This document shows positions 1,741 to 58,844 of a stretch of DNA of 64,000 nt, piece by piece (the stretch's first letter is position 1; each line of letters opens with the position of its first letter). The position numbers were made by a program, and so were the translations under genes. Under the pieces are notes generated by a model that saw nothing but the letters and a program-made list of their open reading frames with translations, was not told the origin of the DNA and made no database searches. The stretch lies in IMG/VR virus record IMGVR_UViG_3300017780_003104, positions 96,001 through 160,000 of that record; one strand, written 5' to 3'. The DNA comes from a virus. Lineage: Duplodnaviria > Caudoviricetes.

Positions 1741-4164
1741 ATGGCAACTCGCACAATTTTAAGCCCCGGTGTTGAAATATTTGAAAGAGATTTATCTCTA
1801 ATAGCCCCACAAAATGTGGGAACGAATGTATTCATTGCTGGGTATGCAGCACAAGGACCAACTGATGAAGTGATTAAAATCACTACAAGAGCAGATTTGG
1901 ATCAAATTTATGGACCTCCAACTAATAGTGCTGAGAGATACTTTTACCATGGAGTTCGTGAACTTTTAAATTCACCAGCAAATATCTATACTTCAAGACT
2001 TCCATATGGATCTGGAAGTGGTGCTGGATTTGGATCTGAATATTCAGCACTGGTATATCCAGTTCAACACGTTAATGAAACTACTGTTGATAGTCTCAGT
2101 CTTGCTTCTGCATCGTTATCAGCAACTGCAATAGCTAGCTTATCTTCATCTGTTACCTCAGATCTAAATCAACTTTCTGGAACATATGTGCTAGGTGATC
2201 CAGTTCATGTAACACTTAGCGAAACTCAATATCAACTAATCCAAGAAGGTTCTCTATTTACTTGGAGTGCCAGTGCATGTGAACGAAGTCAATTAACAAC
2301 ATTTGATAATCTTGGTAGAGCTGGATTAATTATCCTTAATAAATCCCAAACAACTATCAATAGTCAATTTGAAGGTTATTATATTGGTATTGCTGATAAC
2401 ACTAATATCAACCCAGCATCTAATTATACATCGATTATTGGGGCTAAGACCGTTAGCGTATCTGCTACATATACACCAAACTTTACTAATATTCCTCTTG
2501 GAACTTTCCAATTTAGCTTAACATCTACACCAAATGGTAATTCTGGGAGTATCTCCCAAATCATGGAAAATCTTACGGATTACAACATTGATGGAAGAGA
2601 AGATGATGATTTACTTAACATTGGTATATTCAAACTTCGTAAGAGTTTCTACGCAACAGACGCTTATAAATTAGATTATGTCGTAGATAGTGCTATTGTT
2701 GGATCTATTGATAGCTTCAGAACCCGACCAAATCAATTAGGTGGTCCATTTGTATCATTTTACTTAGAGAATGAAGATAGTAACAATAGAAATGTTGAAG
2801 TCTTGGTTAATCCATATATATCTAATAAGTTTGGATCTACTGCTGTTGGTGTTGATGGAATTCCTAACAAAAAGGTTCGTATATTAACCCATGATTTGGT
2901 TAATGGTGTCAATGCTTTATACACAAACAGTGTTAATAGTTTAACAGCGACCAATCTATATGGTGTTCTTAATCCTCAAGTAGATGTATTAGTATCTAGA
3001 GTTAGTTACGCTGACAATATCTATCCAGTTGGATCATACAGTTCTGGTCAAATTACATCTAAAGTATTAGGATCGATTCCTTCTAAAATTGAGAGAGCAT
3101 TAGAAGCCGTCAAGAATGATGAGATTTATGATATAGATGTTGTCGTTGAAGCTGGTCTTGGAACCATTCATGTCATGACCAATATTCTTGGAACGGAGAA
3201 TCAATCTCTTTCAACTACATACTATGACGATACCAAATTTAGTGATGACTTAAGTAATGCCTTGGATACTATTAGAACCTCAAATCCATTAGATGAAATT
3301 GGTACAGATATTAGAAGTAATTATAGTGTGATTTTTAATGTGTTTGAAAATTTTTGTAATCTTCCATCCAATACTGGTGGTCGTGGTGACTGTATGTTTA
3401 TAGCAGACCCAATTCGTCATATCATGGTAACTGGTAAGAGTAATAAAGTTCTGTCAGATAGATCGAAGAATTTCCAAACTCATATATATTGGGCGATGAG
3501 ACATCAGTTCGAAAATGAAAATACTTCATACGCCGCAACTTATGGTAACTGGGCATTGGTTTATGATGAATTCTTAGGTGATAAAGTGTGGGTTCCATTC
3601 TCTTCAGTTGCTGGTGCAGCTTTTGCTCGTAATGATGCAGCGGAATTCCCATGGTCTGCTCCTGCTGGATACACTAGAGGTCTTGTGAGTGGAACCGTAG
3701 TTGACATTGCAATCACACCTAATCAAAAGCAACGCGATGAACTCTACAAGAGTAACATCAACCCCGTTCTTTTCTCACCATCACAAGGTATGGCAATCTT
3801 TGGTCAAAAGACTATGAGTAGAAAGCCAAGTGCCTTTGATAGAATTAATGTTCGTAGATGTTTCTTAGCTCTAGAACGTCCAACTAAAAAGGCATCTATC
3901 TTCTTCGTATTCGAACCAAACACTGAATATACTAGAACGAGATTTGTCAATACTATTAAACCAATATTTGAATATGCTAAAAATAATCAAGGAGTTTACG
4001 ACTATCTAATTGTTTGTGATGAAAGAAACAACACACCACAAGTTATTGATAGTAATGAGATGAGAGCAGATATTTATATCAAACCAGTTAGAACTGCCGA
4101 GTTTATCTTAGTATCCTTCATTGCAACTCGCACTGATGCGAATTTTGAAGAGTTGATTGGGTGA
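1741..4164 (+). CDS. gp18: Contractile tail sheath protein
   Basis: N-terminal SPGVEIFERDLS; C-terminal PWSAPAGYTRG, QRDELYKSNINPV, FDRINVRRCF and IYIKPVRTAEFI. Confidence 0.95.
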   Translation: MATRTILSPGVEIFERDLSLIAPQNVGTNVFIAGYAAQGPTDEVIKITTRADLDQIYGPPTNSAERYFYHGVRELLNSPANIYTSRLPYGSGSGAGFGSEYSALVYPVQHVNETTVDSLSLASASLSATAIASLSSSVTSDLNQLSGTYVLGDPVHVTLSETQYQLIQEGSLFTWSASACERSQLTTFDNLGRAGLIILNKSQTTINSQFEGYYIGIADNTNINPASNYTSIIGAKTVSVSATYTPNFTNIPLGTFQFSLTSTPNGNSGSISQIMENLTDYNIDGREDDDLLNIGIFKLRKSFYATDAYKLDYVVDSAIVGSIDSFRTRPNQLGGPFVSFYLENEDSNNRNVEVLVNPYISNKFGSTAVGVDGIPNKKVRILTHDLVNGVNALYTNSVNSLTATNLYGVLNPQVDVLVSRVSYADNIYPVGSYSSGQITSKVLGSIPSKIERALEAVKNDEIYDIDVVVEAGLGTIHVMTNILGTENQSLSTTYYDDTKFSDDLSNALDTIRTSNPLDEIGTDIRSNYSVIFNVFENFCNLPSNTGGRGDCMFIADPIRHIMVTGKSNKVLSDRSKNFQTHIYWAMRHQFENENTSYAATYGNWALVYDEFLGDKVWVPFSSVAGAAFARNDAAEFPWSAPAGYTRGLVSGTVVDIAITPNQKQRDELYKSNINPVLFSPSQGMAIFGQKTMSRKPSAFDRINVRRCFLALERPTKKASIFFVFEPNTEYTRTRFVNTIKPIFEYAKNNQGVYDYLIVCDERNNTPQVIDSNEMRADIYIKPVRTAEFILVSFIATRTDANFEELIG

Positions 4165-4191
4165 TAAATATAACATATACTAAATAATAAT

Positions 4192-4758
4192 ATGCCAACA
4201 AACATTAATACATTCTATAATCTTGCATCTCAAAGACAATTTGCTAGAGATTTCTTCCTGAGAGTTCACCACATTGAACTTCCCGGTATTTCACTATTCG
4301 GTGATACGGATTTAGTTTTCGCTAAAACCGCATCAATACCCGGAAGAAATATCGAGAATAAGATAGTTAATTACTCTGGACAACAATTCAATCTTAATGG
4401 TAAGTCTAGTTATCCGGGATCAGAGGCTTATAGCATTGAATTCTTTCATACTCAAGATTTAGATCTTCGTAAAAAATTAGAATATGCATCGAGACTTACA
4501 TTCGATAATGAGACTACAACGGGTCAACTTTGTATGCCGGGACCAGAATCATATATAATCCTTGATGTATTATCAGTTCCTTGTGGTCAAGGTAATCAAG
4601 GGGGTGAGGGAATGCAAGTAATTCAGCAAATCAAACTTGTTGGTGTTTCTATTAGAGAAATCGGAGAAGTCGCATATCAAATTGCTGATGGAACTGGTGA
4701 AGTTCTATCTATTCCATGCACATTCTCATATCATTGGTATGAGAATTTTTCATACTAA
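4192..4758 (+). CDS. gp19: Tail tube protein
   Basis: Follows the sheath; KTASIPGRNI...VNYSGQQFNLNG and FSYHWYE ends are typical of T4-like tubes. Confidence 0.8.
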   Translation: MPTNINTFYNLASQRQFARDFFLRVHHIELPGISLFGDTDLVFAKTASIPGRNIENKIVNYSGQQFNLNGKSSYPGSEAYSIEFFHTQDLDLRKKLEYASRLTFDNETTTGQLCMPGPESYIILDVLSVPCGQGNQGGEGMQVIQQIKLVGVSIREIGEVAYQIADGTGEVLSIPCTFSYHWYENFSY

Positions 4759-4780
4759 TAGTTTAATAAATAAATCTTTT

Positions 4781-4810
4781 AAACCCAATTAATTCATTTT
4801 AATTGGGTTT
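4781..4810 (+). terminator. Hairpin, probable intrinsic terminator after the tail tube gene
   Basis: AAACCCAATTAA-TTCATT-TTAATTGGGTTT is a perfect 12-bp inverted repeat followed by a T-rich tract. Confidence 0.55.
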
Positions 4811-4835
4811 ATTTGTTGTATGGGTAAATAATTAA

Positions 4836-5435
4836 GTGAATCCTAATATTTACGAATTTTTCGCTGCGTTCTCTTATGATCCCAAATTCTATTTACACTT
4901 ACCAGTTCTTTGGACTGTTTCAATTGATGGAGTAACGGAGAGATCAATTAATAATGTTTTACTTGATGCTGGGGAACAATGGATGGCTAAGACAGATCCA
5001 TGGAAAATGTCTAGAAGTGGAAATATATTAGTAGCACAGGAAGTATCACTACCACAAGAATCATCAAATTTCTCAGCATTAGAATTTGGTAGCGGGATGG
5101 GTGGATACTTACCGGGATATGCATTAAATAATAGAACTAATTTTTTAGATAGATCATTTTCAATTAATTTCATTGAAACTGAATTAGACATAGAACATAA
5201 TTTCTTCAGACCATGGTTAATTGCTCTTGGTGTTAAAGGGTTGATAGAATATGGACCATCACTAAAATCTAGTATAGAGATTAAACAATATACCAATGAT
5301 GGAATATTGATACGAGGATTCCGATTTAATAAAGCATTTCCAACTGCAATTGAAGGTTATACCCTTAATTATGAAAATACTGACATTCCAATTAAATCGG
5401 TAACATTTGGTTGTCAGAATTATGAACAAATATGA
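4836..5435 (+). CDS. Tail-tube-family baseplate/tube initiator (gp54-like)
   Basis: Tube-like pattern (FSINFIET..F.RPW...IEIKQY...FPTAIEGYTLNY..VTF); synteny; GTG start 5 nt after TAAATA. Confidence 0.5.
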   Translation: MNPNIYEFFAAFSYDPKFYLHLPVLWTVSIDGVTERSINNVLLDAGEQWMAKTDPWKMSRSGNILVAQEVSLPQESSNFSALEFGSGMGGYLPGYALNNRTNFLDRSFSINFIETELDIEHNFFRPWLIALGVKGLIEYGPSLKSSIEIKQYTNDGILIRGFRFNKAFPTAIEGYTLNYENTDIPIKSVTFGCQNYEQI

Positions 5436-6220
5436 TATTATCAATTCCAAGCTTATCTGAAGAATGTAATATAAACGTATCGGAATTCACATTAGAGGAT
5501 TTCAGGAATATATCATTCCTGATCGAACAGAATAATGATAATGAATTATATAAGTTTCTAATATCTAAAATAGAGACTCCATGCAATGCATATGATAAAT
5601 TCTATGTTCTTTTTAAAATGAGAATATTATTAGTAAATGAAAATATATCATTTAATAATGGAAGAGCTAATATAAAAGTAAATTTAAAATCTTGGGATAA
5701 TACGATTTTAGATAACTATAAAGATATCAAAAAGGATATAATATTTGAGGATTTTATAGCAACAGTGAATTACCCAGAGCATATGATGTACGATAATTAT
5801 GATGATTGTGTAATGGGATGTATTGCAAAAATTTCATATAAAGGTAGAGACATTAAATTCTTCGGATTGGATAAAACTGAAAAGCTTTCAATTTTGGAGA
5901 GAATACCACCATCGTTATATATTTCAATTAAGGACTATATAACTGAACATCGCATGGATAGGTTAATTGTAATGGAGTCTAAATTAGATTTACCAGAAAT
6001 CGATATAAATATTTTCAATAATAATGCATACGAATTATTAAAAATATTATATAATTACTATAAGTATGACGATATATTAGAATTGATATTTATGCTAAGT
6101 CGAAAAATCAATGATATTGGGTATTTGAATAGTAGAAATCCAAGAGATTTGGACCTTTTAATACAAATATATTCAGAAGATGTTGAAAAAACCTCCCATG
6201 ATAGTAAATCATATATATGA
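5432..6220 (+). CDS. Probable baseplate hub assembly protein (gp26/gp51-like)
   Basis: Position in the baseplate block and acidic composition; weak family assignment. Confidence 0.35.
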   Translation: MILSIPSLSEECNINVSEFTLEDFRNISFLIEQNNDNELYKFLISKIETPCNAYDKFYVLFKMRILLVNENISFNNGRANIKVNLKSWDNTILDNYKDIKKDIIFEDFIATVNYPEHMMYDNYDDCVMGCIAKISYKGRDIKFFGLDKTEKLSILERIPPSLYISIKDYITEHRMDRLIVMESKLDLPEIDINIFNNNAYELLKILYNYYKYDDILELIFMLSRKINDIGYLNSRNPRDLDLLIQIYSEDVEKTSHDSKSYI

Positions 6221-54673: not shown

Positions 54674-56329
54674 ATGTTTGAGAATAAAAGAAACGCAGAA
54701 GTCGTGACTGTTAAATCAGTTACTCGTAAGGAAGTTAACGCATTCCTAAACAATGCTAAAGCAGAATCATCCAAGACTCGTTCTGGTAACGGGGCATTGA
54801 AATTCAGTTCAAGTGGTGATTCGTTTACCGATCAGTTTACTAAGGCTGGTAAGTATAAGGAACCTCGTAAGTTCTCTCAAATCGCACAAGATTGTGAAAT
54901 GTTGTGGGGTGAAGACCCTCTCAAGTGTGTGAAGTTCGCATTGTTTCTTCGTACTATTCCTCGCGTAGTTAATCTTCCTGATGGAAGTAAGACTGAACTT
55001 CCTCAAAAGGGAACCGAGTTGAAGCATGAAGCAATTATGCGTATGCTTTGGTTGAGTGATAAGTCTCCTCAAGCATTCTGGAATAACATTCTATTGTTTG
55101 TTTCTCTTGGATCTTGGCACGATGTTTTCACTATGCTTCAATATGATCTTAGCTACAACGGTTGGAATAATCGTAAGCTTGATTGGGATAAGTTTGGTGA
55201 GTTGATTCTTGCTGGTCTTAACAATAAGAACACCTGTGATCTTATTAAGAAGTATCTTCCTCAAATCAAGTCTCGTAGTCAAGCTACGACTATTGATGCT
55301 CAATCCAACAATGCTATTGCTAAGTGGATTTGCTCTCTAGTCTTTGGTAACAAGGAAAGCGCATCTTCATACAAGGCTTATCGTAAGATCAAGACTAGTG
55401 GAACCGCGCATGATTGGCAAAAGCTTATCTCCCAAAAGAGAATGAGTGAATTGGATTTCAATAAAATTCATGGTCGTGCTCTATCAATTCTTGTTAAGAG
55501 TAAGTTCTTAAAGAACCAAGGACTTAGCGATAAGTATGCATCTTGGATTACTGCACCTACCACCAAGGAAGTTAAGTATACTGGATTCGTCCATGAACTC
55601 TTCGAAGGTAACTGGAAGAACGATAAGAACAACGAAGCAACTATCAATAAGCAATTCGATACTCTTGTTCAAAAGGCAAGAACTAATGAAGTTACTGATT
55701 TGATTGTCGTTCGTGATACTTCTGGATCGATGTCTTCAATTTGTCCCGGCACTAAGTCTTCATGTCTTGATGTTGGAAAGGCAATCGCTCTATACTTTAG
55801 TGAATTCCTTCAAGGAACCTTTGCGGGTCATTGGATTGAATTCAACTCTGATGCTAAACTTCAAAAATGGGTTGGTCAAACTCCCGTTGATAAGTGGAAG
55901 AATGATAAGTCAAGCTTTTATGGTGGAACTAACTTTCAAAGTGTTGTTAATCTTCTCGCTAAGATGAAGAAAGAGGGAACACCTGAAAGTGATTTCCCTA
56001 GCGGTATCCTTTGCATTTCCGATGCAGAATTCAATCCTACTTCATTAGGTAAAACTAATGTTGAGACTGCGTTGACTACTCTTCGTAATGCTGGATTCTC
56101 CAAGGCTTATGTTGATAACTTTGTGATTATTCTTTGGAACCTTCAAAATAGTTATTATGGTAAAGGGTCTGGTGAAAAGTTTGAGACTGGTAAAGAAGTA
56201 AACAACGTTTACTATCTGGGTGGGTATAGTGCCTCCGCAGTTAGTTTCCTTTCAGCTAAGATCAAGACAACCTATGATCTAATCAACGAGTGTCTTAATC
56301 AGGAAGTTTTGAATATGGTTGAGATTTAA
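54674..56329 (+). CDS. Ro60/TROVE-like (DUF2828-type) RNA-binding protein with a C-terminal vWA domain
   Basis: Helical N-terminus (KFALFLR, GSWHD, KYLP) and vWA MIDAS elements VVRDTSGSM, GGTNF and ISDAEF; TTGACA-16-TAAGAT-N6-ATG upstream. Confidence 0.72.
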   Translation: MFENKRNAEVVTVKSVTRKEVNAFLNNAKAESSKTRSGNGALKFSSSGDSFTDQFTKAGKYKEPRKFSQIAQDCEMLWGEDPLKCVKFALFLRTIPRVVNLPDGSKTELPQKGTELKHEAIMRMLWLSDKSPQAFWNNILLFVSLGSWHDVFTMLQYDLSYNGWNNRKLDWDKFGELILAGLNNKNTCDLIKKYLPQIKSRSQATTIDAQSNNAIAKWICSLVFGNKESASSYKAYRKIKTSGTAHDWQKLISQKRMSELDFNKIHGRALSILVKSKFLKNQGLSDKYASWITAPTTKEVKYTGFVHELFEGNWKNDKNNEATINKQFDTLVQKARTNEVTDLIVVRDTSGSMSSICPGTKSSCLDVGKAIALYFSEFLQGTFAGHWIEFNSDAKLQKWVGQTPVDKWKNDKSSFYGGTNFQSVVNLLAKMKKEGTPESDFPSGILCISDAEFNPTSLGKTNVETALTTLRNAGFSKAYVDNFVIILWNLQNSYYGKGSGEKFETGKEVNNVYYLGGYSASAVSFLSAKIKTTYDLINECLNQEVLNMVEI

Positions 56330-56918
56330 ATATCTTAAACTTTCTATCTAAAAAGAGAGTGGAGTCTTTGTAAATAAAGTTTCCGATGCGACCAACTTTA
56401 TCTAGAATCAATAGACAAGCCGACTGATTTGGAAAAATTTACAATGACAATAATAACAGCAAAATTAGAAGAGGTTGACAAATCTAAATTTCATGATTAA
56501 ATAAAGATCCGATGAGGTTTCGGTAGCTTCCTATGGCGAACAAATAAAACTACCAATAAGATTGCTTCAGCAAATATATTTTTATTTAAGGAAAAACAAA
56601 AGCAATCTGATAAGAGGACAAACTACAAATACAAAAAATCAAACGTCCTCTGATAAGAATAAGTAACAGCAAAAACAATAAAAAATAAAAGCAAATATGC
56701 TAAACGATGAAAGTCGTCCGGGTATCCTCACCATATTAGAGGTTGTAATATGGAGCTTAGAAGGGAGTCAATCTTAACTTATTCTGATAAAGTCATAAAC
56801 TGCAAATAAAAATACTATTATGCAAAATAGCCTGTCGGTGGGTCCGAGGTAACTAAAACGGTTCGATTCCGTATCTATGACTTGCATAAAATCTCTTCAG
56901 CAAATAACGGAACGTAAA

Positions 56919-56996
56919 ACTCCCATACGTGTGGTTCAAATCCCGCTGCTCACACTTTATTAAAAAGTGGGTATAGCCAAGTGGTAAGGCAGGAGT
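56919..56996 (+). ncRNA. Circularly permuted tRNA-like domain (unit 5)
   Basis: 3' half ACTCC-CATAC-T arm-TGCTCAC precedes 5' half GTGGGTA-TAGCCAAGTGGTAAGGC-A-GGAGT. Confidence 0.8.
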
Positions 56997-57048
56997 CCAA
57001 AAACAATGAGATTTAATAGAAATACTCCAGCAAATAACGCAACAAGGA

Positions 57049-57127
57049 ACCGTGTGTCGAACGTTCGATTCGTTCTCTCCCACCATATAAGTAAAATGGG
57101 AGGTAGCTCAGTTGGTAGAGCAACGGT
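57049..57127 (+). ncRNA. Circularly permuted tRNA-like domain (unit 6)
   Basis: ACCGT-GTGTC-GAACG TTCGATT CGTTC-TCTCCCA-CCA precedes TGGGAGG-TAGCTCAGTTGGTAGAGC-A-ACGGT. Confidence 0.88.
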
Positions 57128-57462
57128 AAGCAAAAAACATAGTATTTCGATAGGATTATATTCAGCAAATATACTACTCAACTGTTAATTGAAAAAAGTA
57201 AAAGTAATCCGATAAGAATTTCAGCAGCATAATATCGTAACTATAACGACTCTAAGGTAGCTTAGGTTTGGGAAACCAATACGGCGATGGTAGATAGGTA
57301 AACTAAGTTCTTTATAGAATATGTAAACCCTACGGGACGAACGATTGAATATTTATATATTCTTTAATGTGTCAGTGAAAGATGAAATTCTGATAAAATT
57401 AGCAACAGCAAACCAAACAAAAATTTGACTTTTAATCAAACAATAAAATGCTAATTTGATAC

Positions 57463-58379: not shown

Positions 58380-58844
58380 ATGAAGAACATGAACATCGCA
58401 ACCGCATTGAAAGAGAAAAATCGAATCACGGGACGCATTAGTGTATTGCAAGCACAAGTCTATAAGTTTAATACCTATACTAAAGGAGTTGATCAAGACT
58501 TCAATTCGAATGATCTTTTAGTAAAACTACAAGAAGAGTGGGCATTCCTAATTGATCTTAAGACTAAGATCACAAAGGCCAATGTTGGTATTACTGACAA
58601 GTTGGTGCGACTCACAGAATCCAAGGCTGAACTTTCCTTCTGGAATAGCTTTAGGAATACTGGATCAAGTGAGACTAAGAGTAATGAACGCAAGTATATT
58701 GACGGTGAGTGGGCATATGTTGAGGTTGCAACCGTCAATACCATCAATAGTAAAACCGTTCAAGAGAACGTTGATCGTGTTCAAAAGCAAATTGAAGATC
58801 TCCAAGATGAGATTGACAATTATAACGGGACCACAAAGATTTAA
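58380..58844 (+). CDS. DIP1984/DUF6847-like coiled-coil protein
   Basis: MNIATALKEK, LIDLKTKITKAN and IEDLQDEIDNYN. Confidence 0.7.
   Translation: MKNMNIATALKEKNRITGRISVLQAQVYKFNTYTKGVDQDFNSNDLLVKLQEEWAFLIDLKTKITKANVGITDKLVRLTESKAELSFWNSFRNTGSSETKSNERKYIDGEWAYVEVATVNTINSKTVQENVDRVQKQIEDLQDEIDNYNGTTKI

Follow-up and report, generated by a model that had tools for sequence, protein, structure and literature searches.

Bacterial and phage Y RNAs, including YrlA (RF02553), are encoded next to Ro60 genes, often in tandem, and have their ends paired (Chen et al., 2014, PMC4201824). The module carried by YrlA copies a stable RNA of the translation apparatus, tRNA, with its invariant bases kept, and is handled by tRNA enzymes (PMC4201824). 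This source also describes an action of bacterial Ro60 in 23S rRNA maturation and in rRNA decay. The discovery that bacterial Y RNAs mimic tRNA raised the question of what their variable modules are for. The RNA considered here has a module that resembles another conserved piece of the translation apparatus, helix 69 (H69) of 23S rRNA. In E. coli, three uridines of the H69 loop are converted by RluD.

The stretch of DNA that was analysed (the window, 64,000 nucleotides) belongs to the complete 211.7-kb genome of a freshwater jumbo phage with terminal repeats. It encodes a 551-aa protein made of a helical TROVE-like ring part and of a C-terminal vWA domain with a DxSGS MIDAS motif. The only Pfam name obtained for this protein is DUF7788 (5e-10), Pfam TROVE matching neither it nor anything else in the phage, and PHROG 850, 'RNA-binding protein', matches it at 3e-30. 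When its AF2 model (pLDDT 81, pTM 0.81) was compared to the PDB with Foldseek, the top 13 matches were all Ro60/TROVE proteins aligned over the full length (E 2.5e-7 to 1.8e-3), including a Thermus phage Ro60 and the Ro proteins of Xenopus, human and Deinococcus. As judged from this model, the protein has the Ro60/TROVE fold. A Thg1-type gene is located 1.4 kb upstream of the Ro60-like gene. On the 3′ side, an array of small RNA units begins 0.15 kb after the 551-aa gene, a genomic linkage expected of Y RNAs. The Ro60-fold protein thus has an RNA array next to it, an arrangement known for Y RNAs (PMC4201824).

The array occupies a gap (56330-57462) devoid of any credible ORF, between the 551-aa gene and a gene for a small membrane protein. 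Its units obey a common grammar, in which a closing stem of the unit's own sequence is followed by a CAGCAAAUA-type motif, a variable cargo, the other strand of the closing stem and a CUGAUAAG-type trailer. In a unit neighbouring the one discussed below, positions 57051-57125 give a sub-threshold match to YrlA (33 bits, E 4.7e-5), the cargo consisting of a T arm, a loop-closed acceptor stem and a D arm in permuted order. A promoter-like element precedes the array (Table 1); it is missed by a consensus promoter scan, its second hexamer ending in A.

Other units of the array have features of their own. By direct reading, units 7 and 9 contain hairpins with the loops CUGUUAA (Asn GUU, 57178-57192) and CUUUUAA (Lys UUU, 57424-57440). 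The arm at 57424-57440 is equal to the anticodon arm of E. coli tRNA-Lys over 15 bases, and the Asn-type unit is also found in two related phage loci (L051 and L064). The two simplest units, 56560-56609 and 57154-57211, give sub-threshold matches to Dictyostelium Class I RNA (30.2 and 16.4 bits), which come through the closing stem and the CAGCAA motif. A closely related strain, present in two river/lake runs, lacks exactly 57015-57148, with 57014 joined to 57149; the missing piece is one permuted tRNA look-alike unit, so that whole units are gained or lost cleanly. In one freshwater-sediment metatranscriptome, contigs cover 56330-56406 and 56807-57069 and not unit 8, which speaks neither for nor against expression of the latter. 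The contig identical to 56807-57069 (263 nt, units 4-6) is a contig only and not a proof of transcription; the metatranscriptome comes from the same sample as one DNA holder of the array.

Table 1. Features of the Ro60-like locus and of unit 8 (positions in the window)
Feature	Position	Strand	Basis
551-aa Ro60-fold protein gene	54674..56329	+	Pfam, PHROG, AF2 model, Foldseek
Promoter-like TTGACA-N17-TAAATA	56475..56503	+	Read directly; same place in L002, L051, L064
Tandem array of stem-closed units	56506..57462	+	Sequence reading; grammar common to L002, L003, L051, L059, L064
Unit 8, closing stem P1 (57215-57223/57383-57391) around a structured cargo of ~160 nt	57215..57391	+	MFE and consensus folds
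5′ handle motif GCAGCAUAAUA, variant of CAGCAAAUA	57224..57234	+	Alignment of units and homologs
Copy of 23S rRNA 1908-1934	57235..57261	+	23/27, sole rRNA-like 27-mer, nhmmer E 3.6e-5
P2 hairpin CUAAG-GUAG-CUUAG, overlapping the 3′ part of the rRNA copy	57252..57265	+	Consensus fold
P3 hairpin with GAAA tetraloop	57268..57279	+	Covaries: UA, CG, AU at two pairs
Conserved core with UACGGCGAU, the long hairpin P4 (57290-57333) and, after it, GGGACGAACG	57280..57343	+	Invariant blocks, covarying P4
P5: conserved GACG/UGUC helix with a variable covarying hairpin (57347-57362) inside	57336..57373	+	Consensus fold
3′ trailer CUGAUAAAA, common to the other units	57390..57398	+	Sequence reading

Unit 8 is about 175-180 nt long. 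Its consensus fold, drawn from five homologs, has 46 pairs, 21 of which show compensatory changes, and this covariation establishes unit 8 as a real structured RNA. The helices are separated by invariant single-stranded blocks, and P4 is shortened in the most distant homolog (L064). Covariation cannot test P2, all positions of which are conserved. The initial annotation of this DNA had given a unit length close to the 177-180 nt measured here. Two of the hairpins it had read, TTGG-GAAA-CCAA (57268-57279) and GAATAT/ATATTC (57348-57362), are real and covary. Its CC-TACG-GG tetraloop does not stand, since CUAC pairs with GUAG at 57290-57293 in the consensus fold and L002 has no CC. Within the invariant core, CGGCGAUGGUAG at 57283-57294 is identical at 11 of 12 positions to one side of loop E of E. 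coli 5S rRNA (67-79). Misfolded 5S rRNA is a classic ligand of Ro60. About 20 of 500 shuffles (about 4%) do as well as this 12-mer, so that the likeness is not significant after multiple testing.

The copy of 23S rRNA opens the cargo, immediately 3′ of the handle. The 27-mer at 57235-57261 is present as first described, and the 23 identities out of 27 that had been claimed with E. coli 23S rRNA are confirmed with K-12 rrlH (1908-1934, plus strand of the window). The identities fall in two blocks, 13 bases from C1909 to G1921, which comprise the top of the stem and the whole loop, and 10 bases from C1925 to C1934; the three bases in between (1922-1924) differ from 23S. In an ungapped scan of every 27-mer of the window, on both strands, against E. 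coli 16S, 23S and 5S rRNAs, this is the only site with at least 21 of 27 identities, the background reaching at most 20 (36 cases). When related loci (65 kb) were scanned in this way, the background reached 22 once. By extrapolation of this background, 23/27 is expected by chance about 0.1 times per window. When the rrn operon was searched with a profile built from the unit-8 family, a single match was returned, 23S 1908-1934 (E = 3.6e-5). These figures bear on the concern, raised at the outset, that the match might not be significant given the size and composition of the window. Taken for the window alone, the 23/27 match is suggestive, and its location inside a 1.1-kb non-coding array strengthens the case.

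The likeness is confined to these 27 bases. Local alignments of the rest of unit 8 with 23S rRNA are no better than those of shuffled sequences, and neither the lower H69 stem nor H68, the 3′ part of H70 or H71 is present in unit 8. The continuation into H68, the 3′ strand of H70 and H71 that a fragment of an rRNA gene or pseudogene would display is thus not observed, and no rRNA gene was found in the 211.7-kb phage. With Rfam, unit 8 gave no match at E≤10, either to the LSU models or to any other family. A further match, of the L051 homolog to 23S 1607-1642, is equalled in 7 of 200 shuffles and is not significant after multiple testing. The description as an 'H69-70 mimic' therefore holds for the upper H69 stem, the loop and the ten following bases (1909-1934), and has to be dropped for the 3′ part of H70 and for H71.

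The copied letters can form an H69-like hairpin (stem 57235-57238/57246-57249, loop 57239-57245) followed by CUCUAAGGUAGC. In the window this hairpin has four pairs (U-A, C-G, G-C, U-A) around the seven-base loop AACUAUA. Direct reading bears out both the intact loop and the compensated pair reported earlier, 1908-1922 being U-A in the window vs C-G in 23S, with a U.G intermediate in L051. The number of pairs is four in the window, five in L051 and three in L008, as compared to six in H69, with an identical loop. The predicted pair probability of the hairpin is 0.54 in the window, 0.85 in L051 and 0.37 in L008. The hairpin is not the favoured fold in L070, L068 and L008 (probability 0.02-0.4), values being lower in the GC-rich bacterial copies described below. 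An alternative pairing of the loop with downstream bases, ACUAU/AUAGU, seen in the fold of L070, has no support from covariation.

A covariance model (R1), built on three copies of unit 8, finds five distinct homologs: the window (209 bits), L008 (= L050; 211), L051 (166), L002 (= L009; 162) and the distant L064 (64). In L008, the copy has the same 26 bases and 23/27 identities to 23S. In L051, identity rises to 25/27, CGG being restored on the 3′ side to give a five-pair stem. A near-identical strain from two river/lake runs has kept the 27-mer. The 13-base loop block is invariant in the window, L008 and L051, though these differ elsewhere. In L002 the H69 loop has been lost through a two-base insertion and other changes, and in L064 only UCCUAAGGUAG is kept of the copy, together with an A-rich loop closed by U-A, C-G and A-U (direct reading). 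Family conservation, which the initial annotation had brought up, is thus found in part: the copy is kept in L008 and L051 and has decayed in L002 and L064. The loss of the loop in the latter two indicates that exact H69 identity is not needed for persistence of the unit. The presence of different subsets of 23S letters in different members fits descent from, or selection towards, rRNA, with some relaxation.

Most arrays of close relatives are without unit 8, including those of phages whose Ro60-like protein is 87-88% identical. The same holds for Leptolyngbya phage Lbo-JY46, which encodes the nearest cultured relative of the 551-aa protein. No DNA match to unit 8 was found among GenBank phages. 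When IMG/VR was scanned for three anchor motifs that do not belong to the H69 part, the matches were mostly due to chance and were rejected by the covariance model; a metagenome motif scan added L051, its other matches being coding DNA. In another relative (L062), whose Ro60-like protein is 79% identical, an insertion separates the Ro60-like gene from an array that is shortened; it holds a 261-aa ORF with faint LAGLIDADG matches (3529-4314, minus strand) and three small ORFs, and comes directly after sequence shared with the window around 56390.

The copy also occurs on unrelated bacterial DNA. One genome per prokaryotic species (596 Gb) was scanned with a 26-mer having two degenerate positions, so as to cover the variants of the window and of L051; by our own arithmetic, about 0.001 match is expected by chance. 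Twelve matches are true 23S genes, mostly from Patescibacteria, and three are non-rRNA loci. The Patescibacteria 23S genes (L067, L069, L071, L073-L078, L080, L081) read CGGUUCUAAGG at 1920-1930, with U1924 and with A at 1906. The 26-mer of L051 is identical to this natural variant of Patescibacteria 23S rRNA, from which no conclusion on the host is drawn.

The first of the non-rRNA loci (L068) belongs to an Anaerolineae MAG (G001:C20) and lies on a chromosomal contig of 565 kb. Its Ro60 gene (TROVE 7e-36, vWA_Ro60 3e-70) is split in two overlapping frames (3682-4725 and 4608-5300) and is directly followed, at 5530-5990, by three tandem stem-closed Y RNAs: a YrlA-type tRNA look-alike, a short T-arm-like RNA and the carrier of the H69 copy. 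In this third RNA, the copy comes directly after the upper stem and is identical to 23S 1909-1936 at 26 of 28 positions. The stems look canonical, with scores of 28 bits for RF01656 and 16.5 bits for Y_RNA, both below the Rfam threshold. Since vWA_Ro60 is found in only 1 of 101 Anaerolineae genomes, the locus looks like an acquired cassette. A cyanobacterial MAG (L072) has the same 28-mer as L068, its array also containing two tRNA look-alikes of permuted order. The 481-aa protein encoded downstream of that array has no Pfam match, and the top hits of its model are all Ro60 (E 8e-9 to 6e-7). In a second cyanobacterium (L097), whose protein is 81% identical to that of L072, the unit is present with 27/28 identities to 23S. 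Between the two, the adjacent GNRA hairpin has been changed by compensatory substitutions and the H69 copy is fixed. In a deltaproteobacterial MAG (L070), the copy is preceded by a promoter-like site; the contig is short and has no visible Ro60. Altogether, the four non-rRNA bacterial loci have 26-27 of 28 identities.

The likeness begins at C1909 in each of the eight intact copies; its end is at C1934 in the phage ones and at A1936 in the bacterial ones. At 1923-1924, most of them read C-U where 23S has U-C. The bacterial copies go unrecognised by model R1, and homology is therefore claimed for the module only, not for whole units. The recurrence on unrelated DNA sets aside chance and random rRNA debris as explanations. 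The presence of an identically bounded copy in three or more other, unrelated lineages argues that its letters are under selection to resemble the ribosome. The H69 copy is a module that Ro60-partner RNAs have acquired on repeated occasions or have exchanged with one another. Such rRNA-derived cargo, whose existence in homologous arrays had been raised by the initial annotation, thus occurs in L008 and L051 as well as in the unrelated L068, L072 and L097. The module is sporadic: a TTAYCG+H69 pattern is found in 1 of 401 Chloroflexota genomes, no H69 copy was detected in seven phage loci with a Ro60 related to that of L068, and none within 2.5 kb in three further cyanobacterial loci.

In cyanobacteria, the Ro60-fold gene (L094, L095, L096, L097) is located among extra copies of translation-related genes. 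The genes of these loci encode L7/L12-like and EF-Ts-like proteins, S21, an RRM protein, a Tpt1-type RNA 2′-phosphotransferase and DUF6847. The latter domain is also encoded at 58380-58844 of the window, 1 kb downstream of the array. This gene set, together with DUF6847, may form a conserved cassette.

Considering these observations, the reading that we favour, with a probability of about 0.6, is that unit 8 would be a Ro60-partner ('Y-like') RNA presenting the tip of H69, most likely as a bait or competitor for a host enzyme. Transcription would start from the promoter-like element upstream of the array, and the polycistronic transcript would be cut into units, unit 8 among them. The Ro60-like ring would then hold unit 8 through its stem and handle, leaving the H69 tip to be presented in trans to a sequence-specific reader of this part of the 50S subunit. 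Such a reader would have to be sequence-specific because phages poor in GC and bacteria rich in GC have kept the letters and not just the fold. Candidate readers of H69 are the loop modifiers RluD and RlmH, recycling or splitting factors, the 30S decoding centre and nucleases. Among the H69 readers looked for in the 211.7 kb of the phage itself, no RluD-type synthase, RtcB or LAGLIDADG_1 (PF00961) protein was found. The bait would be aimed at a host enzyme acting on translation RNAs, by attacking or marking them, for instance an H69-directed nuclease or the enzymes that modify H69. To our knowledge, no H69-directed anti-phage nuclease is known in bacteria. An H69-cleaving RNase, Ribocin, is documented for eukaryotic ribosomes (PMC13189344). 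Since the array shows tRNA bodies and look-alikes of the Lys and Asn anticodon loops, near a tRNA repair gene of the Thg1 type, a role as bait or competitor is placed first and a role as adaptor second.

In the adaptor model, the H69 module would bring the Ro60 particle together with a ribosome-associated factor, or with the 30S subunit, and the particle would then work on ribosomes or rRNA, in quality control or turnover. Y RNAs are known to act as tethers, linking Ro60 to PNPase, and the involvement of bacterial Ro60 in 23S maturation and rRNA decay, as described by Chen et al. (PMC4201824), goes in the same direction. The module is moreover found in loci that are chromosomal and not phage-borne (L068, L072, L097), in which a decoy directed at host defence would be less sensible, and the L7/L12-, EF-Ts- and S21-like genes of the cyanobacterial loci would suit such a role. 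However, an isolated four-pair hairpin would be a weak handle for a contact at the scale of a subunit. We consider this model the most serious of the alternatives, and an unlikely one. It may also be imagined that the copy is a relic, that is, a piece of 23S rDNA captured for instance by patch repair on the microhomology CCUAAGGUAG, which would have taken a structural role of its own with no H69 reader. The sequence CUAAGGUAG is indeed conserved in all five members of the phage family and is able to fold into a hairpin by itself, P2; L002 and L064 show a decayed loop part, and the identity of the L051 26-mer with a Patescibacteria 23S variant is what would be expected of a copied piece. Yet the same boundaries (C1909 to C1934/A1936) are found in at least four unrelated lineages, with a Ro60-type protein wherever the context is known, and repeated neutral capture of exactly this piece, only beside Ro60-type genes, is unlikely. 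The fixity of the copy next to a covarying hairpin in L072 vs L097, and the invariance of the 13-base loop block in the window, L008 and L051, also argue against a neutral remnant, which we regard as rather improbable.

Two further explanations invoke the DNA level and chance. The copied span nearly coincides with the I-CeuI site, so that it could be the target or the remnant of a LAGLIDADG homing endonuclease of this type, as the initial annotation had evoked; the faint-LAGLIDADG ORF between the Ro60-like gene and the array of L062 might be seen in the same light. This idea fails because no endonuclease was found linked to the copy (no LAGLIDADG_1 gene in the phage, nor beside L068, L070 or L072), because the three central bases of the site are those that differ from 23S, and because the flanks show RNA covariation. 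The insertion in L062 is located about 0.9 kb from the expected position of unit 8, in a locus whose array does not contain that unit. A feature acting at the DNA level is thus highly improbable. As for a fortuitous resemblance inside an unrelated structured RNA, it might be entertained for the window alone, where 23/27 is only about ten-fold beyond expectation and Rfam LSU models give no score; it is contradicted by the 25/27 identities of L051 and by the 26-27/28 identities of four non-rRNA bacterial loci, met in an independent scan for which about 0.001 match was expected, and its likelihood is close to negligible.

Coming back to the presentation of H69 as a bait or competitor, its consequences can be outlined. 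Our comparisons point to Ro60-partner RNAs that imitate rRNA instead of tRNA, a kind that we have not found described; full-text literature searches returned no paper linking Y RNA or Ro60 with helix 69 or with an rRNA-like module. The existence, in several Ro60 lineages, of a second kind of module that copies another conserved piece of the translation apparatus suggests that mimicry is the point of these modules, and that it did not simply arise from an ancestry in tRNA. For large phages, the same finding suggests that the RNA look-alikes they carry are not of tRNAs alone but also of ribosomal sites. Because H69 has a short list of known readers, at least one of them a nuclease, it offers a sharp experimental handle. 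More tentatively, Ro60-type proteins with their tandem RNAs could form a modular display of translation hot spots, serving, in phages and bacteria, as baits or sentinels against enzymes by which translation RNAs are attacked. The hot spots so displayed would possibly be the tRNA body, the Lys and Asn anticodon loops and the H69 tip, at one per RNA. If this wider view were true, the H69 unit would reveal a new class of H69-directed nucleases or modifiers in the conflict between phages and their hosts.

Compared to H69 itself (E. coli 1906-1924, with the strand 1925-1936), unit 8 copies bases 1909-1934 including the full loop. The top four pairs of the helix are kept, one of them by a double change, and the two lowest are missing; the bases that follow the hairpin can fold in unit 8 into a hairpin of their own, P2. 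Two ribotoxin types attack the same corner of the large-subunit rRNA, MazF-mt6/mt3 at the UUCCU of H70 and Ribocin at eukaryotic H69 (PMC13189344), which makes this corner a target in biological conflicts. The link to MazF that had been proposed fails because the UUCCU site (1939-1943) lies outside the copy, which ends at 1934, and is absent from unit 8, and Ribocin acts on eukaryotic ribosomes. With Dictyostelium Class I RNAs (RF01414), the array has in common a CAGCAA-type motif placed after a short closing stem, and two of its simpler units give sub-threshold matches. Unit 8 gives no match, and the likeness, between different organisms, is one of architecture only.

The closest comparison remains that with YrlA and the other bacterial and phage Y RNAs. 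The partner protein of the phage belongs to the DUF2828/DUF7788 branch, missed by Pfam TROVE. The phage handle CAGCAAAUA/CUGAUAAG differs from the canonical Ro60-binding helix: the closing stem of unit 8 covaries, and the conserved letters stand beside the stem and not in a GGUCCGA/UUGACC-type helix. Positions 57212-57395 gave no match to YrlA at E≤10, and unit 8 is not a member of that family. As in the Y RNAs described by Chen et al. (2014), unit 8 is encoded next to a Ro60-type gene, in tandem with other units, and has paired ends. The neighbouring units of the array are permuted tRNA look-alikes of the YrlA type, and the rRNA copy is carried on the same scaffold, beside a Ro60-fold protein, much as the initial annotation had supposed for its decoys. 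In both cases, the module copies a stable RNA of translation with its invariant bases kept; it copies tRNA in YrlA and H69 of 23S rRNA in unit 8.
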